This document shows, piece by piece, positions 355 through 28,152 of a stretch of 28,765 nt of DNA. The notes beneath the pieces were generated by a model. That model ran no database searches. It saw only the letters and a list, made by a program, of their open reading frames with translations, and was not told where the DNA came from. The position numbers were made by a program, and so were the translations under genes. Within the stretch, counting starts at the first letter, position 1; every line of letters begins with the position of its first letter. The stretch covers positions 1-28,765 of IMG/VR virus record IMGVR_UViG_3300048886_000466; one strand, written 5' to 3'. The stretch is from a virus. Lineage: Duplodnaviria > Caudoviricetes.

Positions 355-390
355 TAGAATGTATTCCAAAGAGGGAAAGAGTTTGGAATG
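355..390 (+). promoter_or_regulatory. Candidate -10 box (TAGAAT, 355-360) followed by a hairpin covering the rusA ribosome-binding region
   Basis: TATTCCAAA (362-370) can pair with TTTGGAATG (382-390). The loop GAGGGAAAGAG holds the SD-like sequence and the 3' arm contains the ATG. Confidence 0.35.
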
Positions 391-798
391 CCTAAAATAA
401 AGATCGTGGTTCCTGGGCTTGCTGCACCTAAGTCACTACGTGTGACAAGGTACGGAGCCTACAATAACAAGCGTGTTCGTTCGTGGATGGACATTGTCAG
501 GGACACAGCGTCCACGGAGAGACCGCCGAAGGCTCCCAAAGGTGTCCCACTATCACTTATGCTCGACGTGTGGCTCCCATGGCCTAAGAAAACTGCGAAG
601 AAGGTGATTTCAGCAGACCCTTACGCCCTGCACACGAAAAAGCCTGATGCAGACAACCTGCTCAAGCCTGTCGTGGACGGGCTGACGGAAGCAGGGCTCT
701 GGGAAGATGACAACCAGATCGCCCAGATGTTTGTTGAAAAAAAATACTGCCCCCGTGGAGAAGAGCGGATCGAAGTCGTCGTTAACTGGCTGAATTAA
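388..798 (+). CDS. rusA: RusA-family Holliday junction resolvase
   Basis: Hallmark motifs KKPDADNLLKPVVDGL and GLWEDDNQI; 136 aa; N-terminal 'VPG..APK..R' element. Confidence 0.92.
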   Translation: MPKIKIVVPGLAAPKSLRVTRYGAYNNKRVRSWMDIVRDTASTERPPKAPKGVPLSLMLDVWLPWPKKTAKKVISADPYALHTKKPDADNLLKPVVDGLTEAGLWEDDNQIAQMFVEKKYCPRGEERIEVVVNWLN

Positions 799-803
799 TA
801 TCC

Positions 804-920
804 ATGTCTCATCGTAAACGGGTAACACGACACAAATGCGTATACCTGAAATACATGCTGCACCAAACTATCAAGTCACTGTCCGCACTGTTTCGCGAGT
901 TTCCTCGCAAATGGGAGTAG
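804..920 (+). CDS. Possible 38-aa small basic protein (MSHRKRVTRHKCVYLKYMLHQTIKSLSALFREFPRKWE)
   Basis: Fills the gap between the rusA stop (798) and the dedA start (925) almost exactly. No clear SD and no recognisable motif. Confidence 0.3.
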   Translation: MSHRKRVTRHKCVYLKYMLHQTIKSLSALFREFPRKWE

Positions 921-924
921 TAGA

Positions 925-1470
925 TTGGACTGGTTAGTTCAGCACCAGAAATTCTTAACACGCGTTACTCCACTACTTATCAGCATAGCTTTCATTGCAA
1001 CAGGGCTTGTGCTATGGGCTACCGGAACATTCAACATCGAGACGGTTGGTTACGCCAGCATCTGGCTCCTCTCATTCATCGCTGCTGCCCTGATTTTCCT
1101 GCCCGTCAGTGCATTAGCAGCCGTCTGTGTGGCAGTTGCAGTTGACCTGAACCCCTTTGTGGTTGCTGTCGTTGCTGCGTCTGCCGAATCCATAGGTGAA
1201 CTGACAGGCTATCTTGCTGGCATGGGTGGTAAGTCCTTCTTTGAACATAAGCGTTTCTACCTACGGTTCAAGAACCTGTTCGAGAAATACTCATTCCTCT
1301 GCTTGCTCATTGGCAGTGCCATCCCGAACCCACTCTTCGATGTCCTTGGCGTGGCGGCTGGCAGCATACTCTACCCTGTCCGTAAATTTTTATTGCTGGT
1401 CTTCATCGGCAAAACCTTAAAATTTACATGGGTAGGATTAAGTTGCTACTACGGGGCAACATGGTTCTAG
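925..1470 (+). CDS. DedA/VTT (SNARE-associated Golgi protein-like) family membrane protein
   Basis: Multi-TM, 181 aa. Motifs 'IFLPV', 'NPFVVAVVAASAESIGELTGYLAG', 'IPNPLFDVLGVAAG...YPVRKFLLLVFIGKTLK'. TTG start with GGGAG 7 nt upstream. Confidence 0.88.
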   Translation: MDWLVQHQKFLTRVTPLLISIAFIATGLVLWATGTFNIETVGYASIWLLSFIAAALIFLPVSALAAVCVAVAVDLNPFVVAVVAASAESIGELTGYLAGMGGKSFFEHKRFYLRFKNLFEKYSFLCLLIGSAIPNPLFDVLGVAAGSILYPVRKFLLLVFIGKTLKFTWVGLSCYYGATWF

Positions 1471-1556
1471 GCACGTTCCATCTGGCTTACATATAGTTTT
1501 CTTGCTGCGTAAGCTGCGGCAATGGCGACCAATGTAAAAGCAAATAACCGTTTCAT
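1467..1556 (-). CDS. 29-aa single-pass membrane peptide MKRLFAFTLVAIAAAYAARKLYVSQMERA (not in ORF track)
   Basis: ATGA overlap with the tatC stop; GAGGA SD just upstream. It exactly fills the tatC-dedA gap, and its TAG overlaps the dedA TAG in a CTAG palindrome. Basic-hydrophobic-basic layout. Confidence 0.7.
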   Translation of the reverse strand: MKRLFAFTLVAIAAAYAARKLYVSQMERA

Positions 1557-2431
1557 TCTTTCCTCATAACTTTTCTGTATGCCCAGCGAGCCTTCACTAC
1601 AGGGTAGCCTATAACAAACCGTATCTTTCGCAAGAGCCACCCTATTCCAGCCCTGATCTTCTTGACGAACAGATAGTCTCCCTGCTCAGGCCATGCCACC
1701 CAGCTTAAGAATAAACCCACCTCGTAAAGCACGATGATCGGGACAGCAAGTAATGTCTGGTTGAATACATCAAACGTGGGGGTGATGATGGCACTAAGCA
1801 CAAATGCTGCCACCGGAACATACTTCCGTAATCCACGTAAGCGCAGGTAGGAAACGATCTGCATCTTGGCGAGCAGGTACATGGTGATAGGTAGTTCAAA
1901 GACTACGCCCAGCCAGAACACCATCGCTGTTAATAACGAAATGTATTCATCAAGGACTATGACAGGGACGGCAACGCCTGTACCGAAGTTAAGAAGGAAG
2001 GCTAGACCAGTAGGAAGCAGGACGAAGTATGCGAACGCAGCACCGAATAAAAAACAGACGACGGTAGCTGGTAGGAATACAACCAGAAACCGCCGTTGCT
2101 GAGGAGGAACCAGCGAACTAAATAAAGTGTAGACACTGATTACTAAAACAGGGAGAGATGCAATGACTCCCCCTCTAATAGCAAGCTGTATGGTTGCCCC
2201 CATCATCGACGTAGGCGAAGTGAATATAGGAAGGTTGCCCTCGAAGGGAGAAAGATTCCCCCCTGCAGGAGCAAGCAGTAAACCAAAGACTGCTTCCCTG
2301 TAATACCACGTACCGCCAGCACCAGCCCCGAATGTAAAAAGAATCCAGAACAGTCGTATTCTTATGCGTCGCCCTAATATGCGCGAAGCAGTACGACCGA
2401 CTTCACCTATGCCCCTGTACGGGGCAAGCAT
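1553..2431 (-). CDS. tatC: TatC-family (twin-arginine translocase) membrane protein, divergent in the signal-binding half
   Basis: About six TM segments. Motifs R.RL, LLAP, 'GAAFAYFVLLP', 'GVVFELP', 'RKYVPVAAFVLSAIITPTFDVFNQTLLAVPIIVLYEVG' (cf. E. coli TPPDVFSQTLLAIP..LFEIG). AAGGA SD; TAATG coupling to the upstream ORF. Confidence 0.92.
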   Translation of the reverse strand: MLAPYRGIGEVGRTASRILGRRIRIRLFWILFTFGAGAGGTWYYREAVFGLLLAPAGGNLSPFEGNLPIFTSPTSMMGATIQLAIRGGVIASLPVLVISVYTLFSSLVPPQQRRFLVVFLPATVVCFLFGAAFAYFVLLPTGLAFLLNFGTGVAVPVIVLDEYISLLTAMVFWLGVVFELPITMYLLAKMQIVSYLRLRGLRKYVPVAAFVLSAIITPTFDVFNQTLLAVPIIVLYEVGLFLSWVAWPEQGDYLFVKKIRAGIGWLLRKIRFVIGYPVVKARWAYRKVMRKE

Positions 2432-2556
2432 TAAGTGTCCTTCTTAGGCTTTGCTTTAGAGTTGCCTCTTCGTAACCAAGTTGCCATCCAGCCACCGCCA
2501 CCCAAAAGGACGACAGTAGAGGCAGCGACGATGCCTACTAAAACCCATTCATTCAT
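2431..2556 (-). CDS. 41-aa single-pass membrane protein MNEWVLVGIVAASTVVLLGGGGWMATWLRRGNSKAKPKKDT, TatA/TatB-like architecture (not in ORF track)
   Basis: AAGGA SD upstream; its TAA overlaps the tatC ATG (TAATG). Glu, short TM, Gly hinge, then a basic amphipathic tail. The ORF is well supported; the TatA/B assignment is inference. Confidence 0.7.
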   Translation of the reverse strand: MNEWVLVGIVAASTVVLLGGGGWMATWLRRGNSKAKPKKDT

Positions 2557-2571
2557 AGGAGTATTCCTTGT

Positions 2572-2829
2572 TTATTGTTGCTCTTCTTCAGTGAGAGCAT
2601 CTATCTTGTTTTTTGCAACTAAGTTACTCAGTCGCAATCGTCTAACTTGCTTTGTAAAATCACGCATCCCAGCTTTTGCTGTAACTGCTGCCCAAGTATT
2701 TACAAACACAATCCCCCGTGCAGCACTGGTGGCTGAATCAACTGCACCTCCAACCAAGAAGTCAAAGGCGCGAACAACTATAAACGAGGCCGCAATCGAC
2801 CCTAGTGTATAGCCCAGCAACCAGCCCAT
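2572..2829 (-). CDS. 85-aa membrane protein; N-terminal TM plus basic amphipathic helix and acidic tail (TatA-like candidate)
   Basis: TAATG coupling at 2829. Hydrophobic N-terminus; segment AKAGMRDFTKQV resembles the TatA amphipathic-helix pattern G-I-R-E-F-K-K; ends TEEEQQ. Confidence 0.7.
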   Translation of the reverse strand: MGWLLGYTLGSIAASFIVVRAFDFLVGGAVDSATSAARGIVFVNTWAAVTAKAGMRDFTKQVRRLRLSNLVAKNKIDALTEEEQQ

Positions 2830-3170
2830 TACTTATCCTTCTTCTTCTTACCTTCAAGAGACTCTAACAATCCATCGACCATCGAAAGTCCTTGAGATAT
2901 GTACGATGTTACCATGTTCTGAATTGGTCGTAACCCTGCGGCTTTTGCTCGATCTTTAAGTTCGGCAAGAGACTCGACAAGTTCACTGGGGCTTATCCCA
3001 TCCCGTCCCTCGACAGTCAGCAGAGGCTTCTCTTCAACGATCACCTCTTCTACTACCGGAGCCTCTTCTACTACGGCTTCTTTTACAGCAGTAGGACTCT
3101 CAACGGTAGGGTGTACCCTACCTTCAGGGGTATCTGTTGGGGGCTTTGGTTTGAAGTCATTGATTTCCAT
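2829..3170 (-). CDS. Hypothetical protein; acidic Pro/Glu/Val-rich N-terminal half, amphipathic C-terminal helix
   Basis: 113 aa; TAATG coupled at both ends; VVEE repeats; C-terminal KKKKDK. Confidence 0.75.
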   Translation of the reverse strand: MEINDFKPKPPTDTPEGRVHPTVESPTAVKEAVVEEAPVVEEVIVEEKPLLTVEGRDGISPSELVESLAELKDRAKAAGLRPIQNMVTSYISQGLSMVDGLLESLEGKKKKDK

Positions 3171-3250
3171 TACTTCCCCTTACCCTTCTTCGTACCCTTC
3201 TTTGGCGGACGGCCTTTCTTACTTCCGTAAGTACCTTTACCTTTTGGCAT
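3170..3250 (-). CDS. 26-aa Lys/Gly-rich basic peptide MPKGKGTYGSKKGRPPKKGTKKGKGK (not in ORF track)
   Basis: AGGAGG SD shortly upstream of the ATG; TAATG overlap with the next gene. Contains an AT-hook-like KGRPPKK. I recall similar 'MPxGKGTYG..xGRP' peptides from marine phages (not verified). Confidence 0.8.
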   Translation of the reverse strand: MPKGKGTYGSKKGRPPKKGTKKGKGK

Positions 3251-14274: not shown

Positions 14275-14679
14275 TTATCTACCCCTTCTCTTTCCTCGTT
14301 TACCACGTTTGCGCCCGCGGCTACTTTTAACGCCGGGAGTCGCAGCTAACGACTCCGTTTTGTCGGGTAATTCCGCAGGCAAGGTCTCTGAATACGCAGG
14401 TGTTGAACCTCCGGGGGCATGATGGATAAGACCCTGTTGTCCCGGTATCTGTACCCATACAGCCCTTTCACCTTCTTTAACAGGACGAACTTTAGCCAGC
14501 ATGTACTGCTTGTCAGCAAGCGGAACACGAATCTGGTGTCCGTCCAGCGTGTCATACAGGAAGCAATAGTCGTCTTGTTTGTCGTCTACTGCGATCCCGT
14601 AATCTTCGCTCTGGCTCACGACGTTATTTCCTCGAAAGGATTGTGCGTCTCGCCATTGTTGCATAGGTGAAGTTGTCAT
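14275..14679 (-). CDS. Hypothetical protein with Arg-rich C-terminus
   Basis: 134 aa; TAATG coupled to the MCP; ends SSRGRKRGKRGKRRGR. Confidence 0.75.
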   Translation of the reverse strand: MTTSPMQQWRDAQSFRGNNVVSQSEDYGIAVDDKQDDYCFLYDTLDGHQIRVPLADKQYMLAKVRPVKEGERAVWVQIPGQQGLIHHAPGGSTPAYSETLPAELPDKTESLAATPGVKSSRGRKRGKRGKRRGR

Positions 14680-15587
14680 TAGCTAATAGCATCTGTCGCT
14701 GAATAGACCTCAACAGCCCACTCATCAACAATTTCAGTTTCGCCCCAAGTACCGACAGTAACAATGTCAGTACCACGAGAACGAATGTCACGGTCGTCTT
14801 CAGCGTCGATCTCTTTTGCCATACAAAGTGCAAAAGCCTGAGGAGCAAAGACACAGCCCTTGGAGTCACCAGACCCATCACGGGAGATAACACCAGAGGA
14901 GTAAATCTGTACTCCGAATCGAGTTTCCTGACCACGCCAGTAGTTGTTGATGACATCGTCGGATGGGCCACTTGGGCGCGCACCAGCAGCCATAGTGGTA
15001 GAACCACCTGCCTGCAAACCAGAGTCATCTTCTACCAGACGACGTATCTGTTCCGGGTGTAATACAGCATTCACTCGACCACCCGGAGATGGGCCAAATG
15101 ATGCGTTGTTGTCGGTCTGCATATATGAAACTGCGCCAGCAAGTTGCCTAAAACCGAAGTTAGAGCCAGCACCCGGCATTGAAAGCCCGGTAACTGAGTC
15201 AAAGAGGGTGACGAGGTCAGACTCACGGAGACGACCAAGTGCAAGACCCTGCATCATTCCAACTTCAGCGAGAACATCTTCACTGTTTTCACGCTGTAAT
15301 ACATCAGACACGAAAGTCAGAACACCATGCTCAGAAGCGGTGACGTTACGAACAGTCACTGAAACTTGTTGAGCGTTCTGAATAGTTACACCCTCAGTAA
15401 GGGCAGCAGCAGTGAGACGACCCCACAATGGGATGTTCTTCTGCTTCTCGCCTTTAGCAAGGTCGTATCGTGATACCAAGCTGGCGGTTGGGCCAGCAGG
15501 TTCCACGTTAGCAATCGCGTCTGCAATAACAGTTGCAGCCATACTCGACAGACTCGACGAACTGGATAGTGTCAGACCTTCAGCCAT
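14679..15587 (-). CDS. Major capsid protein (HK97-fold inferred)
   Basis: 302 aa; follows the scaffold; GAGGA SD. 'NIP.WG.L.AAALTEG' E-loop-like segment, 'VSD.L', long backbone helix, 'VLHPEQ...L', 'FGVQIY.S', 'E.DRD...RGT.IV....WG'. Confidence 0.85.
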   Translation of the reverse strand: MAEGLTLSSSSSLSSMAATVIADAIANVEPAGPTASLVSRYDLAKGEKQKNIPLWGRLTAAALTEGVTIQNAQQVSVTVRNVTASEHGVLTFVSDVLQRENSEDVLAEVGMMQGLALGRLRESDLVTLFDSVTGLSMPGAGSNFGFRQLAGAVSYMQTDNNASFGPSPGGRVNAVLHPEQIRRLVEDDSGLQAGGSTTMAAGARPSGPSDDVINNYWRGQETRFGVQIYSSGVISRDGSGDSKGCVFAPQAFALCMAKEIDAEDDRDIRSRGTDIVTVGTWGETEIVDEWAVEVYSATDAIS

Positions 15588-25825: not shown

Positions 25826-27385
25826 TTACATTTTTACGGGTTCACCGTTTATAACCACGTCTACCTCGTCGAGTACCTCTGCGTAACGCTCTTCCCTGAC
25901 ACCTTTGAAGAAAGAGCCTTTCCTGCGTCTACGCATGGTATTGAGAGGTCTTAGTGGTTCAGCACCCTTGAAAGACTTCTTTGTGCGCGCTTTCTGAGCA
26001 TACTCTACTGGGTCGCATCCATGCAAGGCTAAAACTTCTGCATCTACCCAGTCGTCGTGTTTTCCTGAAATAGTCGTGAATACGTGTCCACGATTGGCAG
26101 TTTCCTTGTGTGAAATGTCCATTAACTGGGTTGACAGCTTTGTCCAGTCAACTGGGAAAGTGACCTGTTCGTGTTCGAGTGCAACTCGATATGGTAGAAA
26201 TAGGTCATGGTACTTAGATACTGGAGTGAAATTAAACGCTATTACTGGGATTCCTTCCGCGAGCATCTCGTTGTACATGATGTCCCTTGCGAATTGCCCA
26301 CCAAGTCCGGTGGAGTCCATGACGATCTGTTTGAGGTTCCATCTTCTTGCCTCGGTACGAACTACCTCCATCTGGATAGTCCAGTCTGTCTTGAGAAGTT
26401 CTGTTGCGTAGACGGATTCTCTTGTTCGTCGGTTCTTTATAATCAGGACTGTTGCGTCATTTGAGCGTCCAAGGTCGAGTCCAGCGACGTATTCGTCATT
26501 TGGCTTGGGCCTGAGCAACTGCGTGGCGATTGCTGCCTTATCGACTTTCCTGAAGAACGCCCCGACACCTTCGGGTTGTATTGCCATGTAGAGACGATTC
26601 CAGTCGTCTTCCATCATGGTTTCCTTGTCATCCCTGATTTCTTCTTTTTGGTCTTCGGTGAGGAGCGGGTTGTCAAATGCAGTCCAAGAGAACGCTTCTC
26701 TCCTTGAGGAAGGTTTTTCCTTGGCGCGCTTAAAGTTCCTTGCGAACCAGTGTCCGGGTGATACCGGGGGTATTCCCTCGACGAGCGCACGTCCTGCTCT
26801 TCCGGGGCTTGAAAGTGTGGGTCTTAGCTTGTTCCAGCCGATTTCGGCAATTTCCTGTGCTTCGGTTATATGCAGGAAGTCGAGTCCTACTGACTGCAGC
26901 GACTCCGGGTTATCTGCGGATTTGAGTTCCCAGAAAACTACAGGTCTTGGTCTTGGCTTTCCGTCTTTTCCACGTAGCCATCTGCCGTTATTGTCTTTGA
27001 ATACGAGCCATACATGCAGCGCGTCTTCCTTGAATCCTGATCCTCTGCCACCGCCAAGTTTATTTTCTCTGTAGGGGTTTGTCTTTGAGACGAGATGTTC
27101 GGGAATAAATGCCTGCATCTCGTTCCAGACCTGATACATCTGTGCCTTGGTAGGGGCTACTGTCCAGACATGGATAGCAGGAACGAGTCTTGCTTCCTCT
27201 GCGTTCATCTGGTTGTCGGGATCATTTGGAAATACGACGTATTCCTGTGAGAGTTCCTCTATGACAGCGAGGTCTTCCTCAAGTGCAGACCGGGTCTTTC
27301 CGCCACGCCGCCCCGTCTGATTCCATTTCACCTTCGCCTTTGACTGGTGAAGTTTTAGCTGGTGTTCATGGGGCTTATAGGGCAT
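25826..27385 (-). CDS. terL: Terminase large subunit
   Basis: YKPHEHQ Q-motif, Walker A GRRGGKT, 'WTVAPTKAQ', 'KSADNPESLQSVGLDFLHITEA'; nuclease motifs GLDLGRSND, MDSTGLG, HDDWVDA. Confidence 0.95.
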   Translation of the reverse strand: MPYKPHEHQLKLHQSKAKVKWNQTGRRGGKTRSALEEDLAVIEELSQEYVVFPNDPDNQMNAEEARLVPAIHVWTVAPTKAQMYQVWNEMQAFIPEHLVSKTNPYRENKLGGGRGSGFKEDALHVWLVFKDNNGRWLRGKDGKPRPRPVVFWELKSADNPESLQSVGLDFLHITEAQEIAEIGWNKLRPTLSSPGRAGRALVEGIPPVSPGHWFARNFKRAKEKPSSRREAFSWTAFDNPLLTEDQKEEIRDDKETMMEDDWNRLYMAIQPEGVGAFFRKVDKAAIATQLLRPKPNDEYVAGLDLGRSNDATVLIIKNRRTRESVYATELLKTDWTIQMEVVRTEARRWNLKQIVMDSTGLGGQFARDIMYNEMLAEGIPVIAFNFTPVSKYHDLFLPYRVALEHEQVTFPVDWTKLSTQLMDISHKETANRGHVFTTISGKHDDWVDAEVLALHGCDPVEYAQKARTKKSFKGAEPLRPLNTMRRRRKGSFFKGVREERYAEVLDEVDVVINGEPVKM

Positions 27386-27939: not shown

Positions 27940-28024
27940 CCGTTAAACCGTTAACTGAAATACACCGTAGCCGTTAAGAGCGAAGGTGTATTTCTACCGT
28001 TAACCGTTAACCGTTAACCGTTAA
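27940..28024. repeat. CCGTTAA heptamer, 7 copies (4 in perfect tandem at 27997-28024)
   Basis: Copies start at 27940, 27948, 27971, 27997, 28004, 28011 and 28018. Confidence 0.92.
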
Positions 28025-28152
28025 GGGAAATCACATACGAAATACACTCCTTGTTCCGAGAACACCGTGTATTTCTTACTCGAAACCCCCAAGTAGAACG
28101 GGTAAAACCGTAATACACCGATAGTGTATTTGCAGTGTATTTAAGTGTATTT
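27957..28152. repeat. AATACAC/GTGTATT motif, 8 copies as three inverted pairs plus phased direct repeats
   Basis: GAAATACAC 27957 / GTGTATTTC 27986; GAAATACAC 28039 / GTGTATTTC 28067; AATACAC 28112 / GTGTATT 28124; AGTGTATTT at 28123, 28134 and 28144. Confidence 0.9.

Follow-up and report, generated by a model that had tools for sequence, protein, structure and literature searches.

A phage-borne Tat-derived cassette with a putative role in exit from peptidoglycan-free marine bacteria

In the canonical twin-arginine translocation (Tat) system, the signal-peptide residues of TatC are H12, E15, F94, Y100, and E103, an E103A variant is inactive in transport, T208 and Q215 are the partners of TatB E8, and the core complex thins the membrane from 38 to 26 Å in molecular dynamics, as given in the available part of PMC13323110. 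Enzyme-free virus exit from an S-layer host is described for archaeal pyramids, whose PVAP proteins (STIV C92, SIRV2 P98, and SIFV GP43) are helical, ~10 kDa in size, and anchored by an N-terminal transmembrane (TM) segment (available part of PMC10791045). No phage-encoded Tat system was found in the accessible portions of the open-licence literature: the words "virus" and "holin" are absent from the available text of a 2026 Tat review (PMC13673990), the phage passages of which concern PhiX174 lysis and the phage shock protein, and text matches to "tatc" in PMC9327680 were primer letters and were discarded. Nor was an account of tailed-phage exit from peptidoglycan-free bacteria found in the literature searched. 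Here we describe a cassette of genes (A, B, C, and tatC, with a further peptide, D) in a 28,765-nucleotide (nt) fragment (referred to as the window) of the tailed-phage record IMGVR_UViG_3300048886_000466. The cassette is real, widespread, and selected, and is without a described counterpart in the sources searched; its function is putative.

The minus-strand virion run of the window has the order terminase, capsid, tail-fibre-like genes, a peptide of 26 amino acids (aa), A, B, C, tatC, and D, and the cassette comprises the following genes:

2829-3170, minus strand: A, 113 aa, with a variable acidic N-terminus and conserved C-terminal amphipathic helices
2572-2829, minus strand: B, 85 aa, with an N-terminal hydrophobic helix and an amphipathic basic C-terminal helix; no family match
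2431-2556, minus strand: C, 41 aa, a single-TM peptide, likely TatA-derived
1553-2431, minus strand: tatC, 292 aa (PF00902)
1467-1556, minus strand: D, 29 aa, a basic/hydrophobic accessory peptide

Adjacent reading frames overlap by TAATG at 3170, 2829, and 2431 and by ATGA at 1553-1556, and B and C are separated by 15 nt. A sequence-only reading of the same DNA had placed the open reading frames (ORFs) at these coordinates, with tatC second-to-last in the virion run and overlaps or gaps of no more than 15 nt throughout, and was correct in each respect.

A homologue search with tatC returned 894 proteins at E ≤ 1e-10 (canonical TatCs included), with identities of 70-94% among the 120 matches listed, and the loci scanned were five, later seven, viral, the best 80 of 248 metagenome, and three genome loci (one phage-type). 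The locus counts rest on 86 phage-type loci, many of them near-copies, with the loci having enough flank as denominators. C preceded tatC in 83/83 loci, B in 77/77, and A in 75/75, bearing out the synteny that the sequence-only reading had anticipated; since all three were upstream of tatC in every locus with enough flank, A-B-C-tatC was regarded as the core. D was present in 45/77 loci (by a crude filter) and missing from deep-branching members, and is a subclade accessory, not part of the core; in L033 (1746-2702), a D peptide is fused in frame to TatC. A gene for a DedA protein followed tatC in 45/66 loci, and the remaining 21 included all deep-branching loci. DedA also adjoined the divergent cassette in L194, and a DedA query gave no plasmid match. 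The median dN/dS values against the window were 0.145 for tatC (48 pairs), 0.09 for C (15), 0.12 for B (33), 0.31 for A (26), and 0.12 for DedA (14). The cassette is therefore phage-borne, conserved, and under purifying selection, and the worry that tatC might be confined to one genome or drift under relaxed selection was not borne out. A chimeric assembly, also considered earlier, is excluded because the gene order recurs in several viral loci and in 80 metagenome loci (the best of 248). Near-identical contig pieces from two runs also cover the region, none of them from end to end (X1 is possibly the source sample), and the runs holding the region are marine and vent metagenomes. Two capsid families were found alongside the cassette (in genomes G001 and G003), and divergent cassette alleles in phages with identical tail genes (L177:13797-15469 versus L180:16946-17673) suggest modular exchange between phages. 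No conserved cargo gene beyond A, B, and C accompanied tatC in the loci compared. In a larger cassette phage (L095/L096; G004), genes for transketolase, cytidylyltransferase, a radical SAM protein, and a methyltransferase were observed, as well as an HNH gene between B and C.

The window TatC gave a full-length profile match to PF00902 (positions 6-208, 147 bits, E 8e-43), and its score against TIGR00945 (131.5 bits) was just below the cut-off of 132.7; a basic C-terminal tail, with 12 K/R and 3 D/E in the last 47 aa, has been added. Residues were tallied in 176 distinct sequences with gaps excluded, and positions were mapped via alignments to Aquifex and canonical TatCs, with E. coli numbers that we take to apply to phage TatC by motif equivalence. 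E15 was replaced by R in 168/168 and F94 by L in 174/174 phage TatCs, and Y100 by P or A in 170/174; the position of H12 was L, F, V, or I, and that of E103 was typically Q, with E retained in 2/175 sequences (the deep-branching L003 and L086). As read from these alignments, phage TatC has lost the signal-peptide site, with all five residues replaced. T208 (176/176), D211 (176/176), Q215 (155/176), and E170 (172/176) were retained and the P48 equivalent was kept, and the pocket region was variable in the wider phage TatC clade. The interpretation offered in the sequence-only reading is partly supported: the cassette is a conserved phage module, but neither the lost signal-peptide site nor the neighboring DedA gene had been recognized in that reading. 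In a bacterial metagenome-assembled genome (MAG), a third, degenerate TatC without the N-terminal HLxELR motif was observed in an unrelated context (L100:10340-11050).

C consists of an invariant E3, a TM segment, a glycine run or hinge, and a short basic tail, with E3 and G20 invariant in 30 sequences; in the C of the L177/L194 type, D is the polar residue at the start of the TM segment. By HHalign, the C family aligned with a TatA set at P 45% and E 2e-4 (40 column shuffles gave at most 5%), and the C-slot gene of L164 (G350), which opens with a TatA-type N-terminus, aligned at P 92.8% and E 4e-7 (100 shuffles gave at most 43%). The link between the latter gene and the window C family was weaker (P 29%), with L004 intermediate by eye, and no assignment of C, B, or A to TatA/B was obtained with Pfam, NCBIfam, PDB, or HMMER. 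The FG hinge is replaced in C by a Gly run and a short helix, and its TM segment exceeds that of the TatA set by three residues. Because the C-slot alignment in G350 is strong, the family link weaker, and the curated TatA models silent, C is likely, and not proven, to be a truncated TatA derivative. A holin family was matched by 1/30 C sequences (E 0.046) and by 0/26 B sequences. B, with a hydrophobic moment of 0.95 at residues 55-65, had no Pfam, PHROG, or Atlas match, and its HHalign value against TatA (P 1.7%) was within the shuffle range; that of A was P 0.2%. A has a net charge of -7 and no hydrophobic or TM segment, and is likely a soluble or peripheral accessory. The term "TatA/B-like proteins" used before is therefore supported for C only and does not extend to A and B, which had no significant TatA match.

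B is uninterrupted in the window. In all seven aligned loci of one subclade (L072, L075, L076, L078, L081, L082, and L084), and with the same pattern in L163, B is interrupted by a stop after 49 codons and resumes in the -1 frame. At each locus this frame is open and conserved, and an X_XXY_YYZ heptamer is found at nt 81-90; a consistent stimulatory hairpin was not found behind these -1 sites (z from -2.2 to +1.7). In L068, L177, L178, and L194, B goes on in the +1 frame after UUU_CGU, a motif to which +1 shifting has been attributed in influenza PA-X and in amalgaviruses (available parts of PMC3498833 and PMC5052127). B of the L177 type was weakly alignable (P 29% and 5%), and its A was clear (P 92%). 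Frameshifting in B is predicted for these two subclades, and its splitting by two different shifty motifs suggests dosage control.

No endolysin, holin, or spanin family was found among the 32 ORFs of the window scanned with Pfam and PHROG profiles, in agreement with what had been noted from the sequence. Similarly, lysis families were absent from the matches of 88 selected ORFs from G001 (with terminal repeats) and G003 (100% complete), of 106 ORFs drawn mostly from G349, G350, and G351 (91, 93, and 99%; PHROG only; G351 ends inside the cassette), and of 146 flank representatives (Pfam only); a standard endolysin or holin elsewhere in the genome, one of the objections foreseen, was thus not recognized in five genomes of 91-100% completeness. 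Both in the window and in complete genomes that carry different capsid families, the cassette closes the virion run at its 3' end. This slot was surveyed via a shared tail gene in 80 of 285 viral relatives, 26 of which had at least 4 kb downstream. Among these 26, Tat-cassette genes were found in 6 and an alternative module in 9, L203 and L205 had only a 2-TM gene of the alternative module, and 9 had neither module within the downstream DNA examined. The alternative module consists of a membrane-anchored family of 290-460 aa accompanied by 2-TM proteins in one or both of two size classes, 50-58 aa (6 loci) and 85-110 aa, and is located as follows:

L201, 10146-11513: alternative module
L225, 12614-13769: alternative module
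L245, 15627-17081: alternative module
L221, L226, L232, L238, L246, and L250: also alternative module

One of three tested 2-TM proteins of 50-58 aa matched the holin family phrog_785 (E 6e-4) and PF16083 (E 0.006, below the cut-off); the anchored protein had no PDB sequence match, and no endolysin was seen at the alternative-module loci. The two modules were never found together: tatC was present in 0/9 alternative loci and the alternative module in 0/19 long tatC loci. This interchange with a weakly holin-like membrane module is the best, if indirect, support for regarding the slot as a lysis slot, and the alternative module is a candidate second exit system. A helical family of 61-95 aa was observed with both modules in 25 loci (e.g. 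L089:11905-12192 and L225:13798-14055) and was not detected in the window.

In a quick tree of 133 of 150 representatives (17 were dropped for low coverage) and 12 loci, with midpoint rooting and the Shimodaira-Hasegawa-like approximate likelihood ratio test (SH-aLRT), 44 phage-type rows (10 loci and 34 representatives of unseen context) were located on one side of a branch with an SH-aLRT value of 100, so that the phage TatCs formed one clade. Adjoining the phage branch was a SAR202 TatC (P0281, MBM3946417.1), the best canonical match (252 bits; the next was 196), with 44% identity to the window TatC over 241 aa. Organism names were available for 3/10 top canonical TatC clusters: one SAR202 and two Dehalococcoidia. 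According to the available parts of the sources, SAR202 has an S-layer and no peptidoglycan (PMC11994032), and peptidoglycan was lost at the base of Dehalococcoidales and the marine radiation and is retained by Tepidiforma (PMC10284905); the earlier statement that cultured Dehalococcoidia lack peptidoglycan is thus too broad. From TatC ancestry, we infer a peptidoglycan-free SAR202 or marine Dehalococcoidia host. A search of 301 genomes revealed no phage-type TatC (best, 141 bits); this set was rejected as a Chloroflexota sample and not used for the host, its top TatCs being presumably planctomycete-type in architecture.

These results suggested, with a rough probability of one half, that the signal-blind TatC, the likely TatA-derived C, and the accessories A and B function as a cargo-independent membrane-thinning lysis module. 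This proposal is based on the 3'-end position, the lack of a lysis-family match, slot exclusion, the loss of the cargo site with the docking site kept, the thinning modelled for the Tat core, the lack of peptidoglycan in SAR202, and the motifs in B. The cassette would be translated late with the virion genes, judging from gene position; C would dock via E3 on T217/Q225 of TatC, in the manner of TatB E8 on T208/Q215, and the resulting TatC-C cup would thin the bilayer without cargo gating. The cup may nucleate additional C, B, and perhaps host TatA up to the point at which the membrane loses its potential and fails, upon which a cell enclosed by an S-layer only would burst. The amphipathic helix of B, dosed by frameshifting in some clades, may set the timing or extent, and A, D, and DedA may have modulating roles. 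Beyond the gene content, we infer each of these steps. With slightly lower probability, the cassette may represent a third exit class of prokaryotic viruses, in which phages of peptidoglycan-free marine Chloroflexota would have domesticated host TatC and TatA into a cargo-independent rupture machine that is frameshift-timed in some lineages and swapped with a second membrane module.

Several points weigh against the lysis module. The match of the window C to TatA is weak (P 45%), HMMER scores do not exceed those of shuffles, and C lacks most of the TatA amphipathic helix. In more distant clade members, the T208/Q215 cluster of TM5/6 is eroded. The holin match of the alternative module is weak and was obtained with one of the three proteins of the family that were tested; in addition, a novel lysin could be hidden among the ORFs of these phages, the majority of which lack annotation. 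The host assignment depends on TatC ancestry, in which a donor is not a host, and the SAR202 sequence is on a 3.5-kb contig. The cassette contig L086 (G006:C52) was binned in a Planctomycetaceae MAG, which has its own canonical tatC, pointing to mis-binning or a second host. None of the features found accounts for a breach of the S-layer.

Among the alternatives, the one that survives best, and which we regard as unlikely, is a dominant-negative decoy, in which a TatC blind to signals and a shortened TatA would enter or titrate host Tat and thereby block the export of folded proteins (a receptor, surface glycoproteins, or redox enzymes) for host takeover or superinfection exclusion. A kept docking site with a lost cargo site is the profile of a poison subunit, as with the transport-inactive E103A variant (available part of PMC13323110), and rapid radiation with cassette swapping between phages with identical tails (L177 versus L180) fits an arms race. 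However, a decoy leaves these genomes without another lysis candidate and does not account for a slot alternating with an unrelated membrane module, and four coupled genes, located at the end of the virion run, exceed what it would need.

It is less probable still that the pocket has been re-specified in a private exporter, reading a phage-specific, perhaps acidic, signal (e.g. on A or B) and moving a folded phage protein. The invariant R at E15 (168/168) and fixed L at F94 (174/174) look like products of selection and not of decay, A is acidic, and E170, P48, and D211 have been retained; on the other hand, C is without a counterpart of the long amphipathic helix with which TatB clamps cargo, no conserved cargo gene besides A, B, and C occurs with tatC, and the wider clade shows free variation in the pocket region. 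A similarly low probability was assigned to non-lytic remodelling, in which the cassette and DedA would adjust lipids or the proton motive force, or aid vesicle-type release. DedA has a role in membrane homeostasis, and its position beside the cassette in 45/66 loci, under purifying selection, would fit, but its absence from 21/66 loci, including all deep-branching ones, and its location on the opposite strand do not. The full-length PF00902 match and purifying selection might also be expected of an ordinary auxiliary gene boosting host Tat export, or of host DNA or a chimera, but either is highly improbable given that all five cargo-binding residues are replaced and that phage genes lie on both sides, the order is repeated in more than 80 loci, and the clade is separate from canonical TatC.

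The other features of the window are as follows:

25826-27385, minus strand: terminase large subunit (phrog_2, E 1e-31), near the start of the virion run
14679-15587, minus strand: capsid (weak matches)
3170-3250, minus strand: Lys-rich peptide of 26 aa, coupled to A by overlap, with other basic peptides in its place in relatives
925-1470, plus strand: DedA/VTT membrane protein (PF09335, E 3e-10), convergent with the cassette
388-798, plus strand: RusA resolvase (PF05866, phrog_140), at the end of the convergent replication module
1-324: ORF with phrog_1123 (function not assigned) as its sole match

Of the phage genes previously named on the far side of the cassette, rusA was confirmed by these families and the winged-helix gene was not, since ORF 1-324 matches phrog_1123 only; moreover, the gene directly beyond the cassette is DedA/VTT, which had been omitted. 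A terminase query matched distant phage records only, and a promoter scan was at chance level (4 versus 4.2). Pieces of the region were present in the RNA runs X15 and X16 and were not counted as expression because contigs give neither strand nor level and DNA carry-over is possible. A basic ORF of 38 aa was observed between rusA and DedA (804-920, plus strand), the sequence of which is conserved in L001:11885-12001. A tract of the repeated 7-mer CCGTTAA (~27940-28025) lies upstream of the gene in the small-terminase position, and may represent an origin or packaging element.

Bacterial communities of the dark ocean are dominated by SAR202 lineages (available part of PMC11994032), and the cassette is a compact, clonable candidate for exit from wall-less bacteria. 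A TatC that is under selection and blind to signals, together with a minimal TatA-like partner, would uncouple thinning of the membrane from recognition of cargo, which is the contested step in Tat. If the cassette is a true exit machine, it would test in nature whether the TatC-TatA core by itself is able to breach a membrane; if it instead jams Tat, it would be a phage Tat inhibitor made of Tat parts. The slot comparison additionally exposes a second, uncharacterised candidate exit module.

The resemblance to archaeal PVAP is in concept only: B is of similar size and layout, but no homology was shown (B had no PHROG, Pfam, or Atlas match), and PVAP is a single protein without TatC. With the holin-endolysin(-spanin) cassette, the module shares the slot, coupled small membrane proteins with charged C-termini, and, in some clades, predicted two-product expression, for which holin and antiholin provide a parallel. 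It differs in that no endolysin, holin, or spanin family was matched in cassette genomes and that its core is a multi-spanning TatC derivative, and it was placed outside this class because it has no recognizable enzyme and no holin match. TatC-like proteins are already present in viral collections, being listed as of unknown function or as TatC (phrog_36238 and viral TatC clusters of the ESM Atlas), and the 14 TatC matches in GenBank phage records were all of at most 34% identity, several of these records being bacterial contigs. With canonical TatAC/TatABC (PF00902 and PF02416), phage TatC shares full-length homology and the equivalents of P48, E170, T208, D211, and Q215, and its gene is likewise immediately preceded by one for a small single-TM protein with a polar residue. 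In contrast, H12, E15, F94, Y100, and E103 are replaced and a basic C-terminal tail is added in phage TatC, the FG hinge is missing from the partner C, as is the greater part of the amphipathic helix, and the extra genes A and B and the viral location at the end of a virion run have no place in the canonical system. Because the cargo residues are replaced, the cassette was placed outside canonical Tat.

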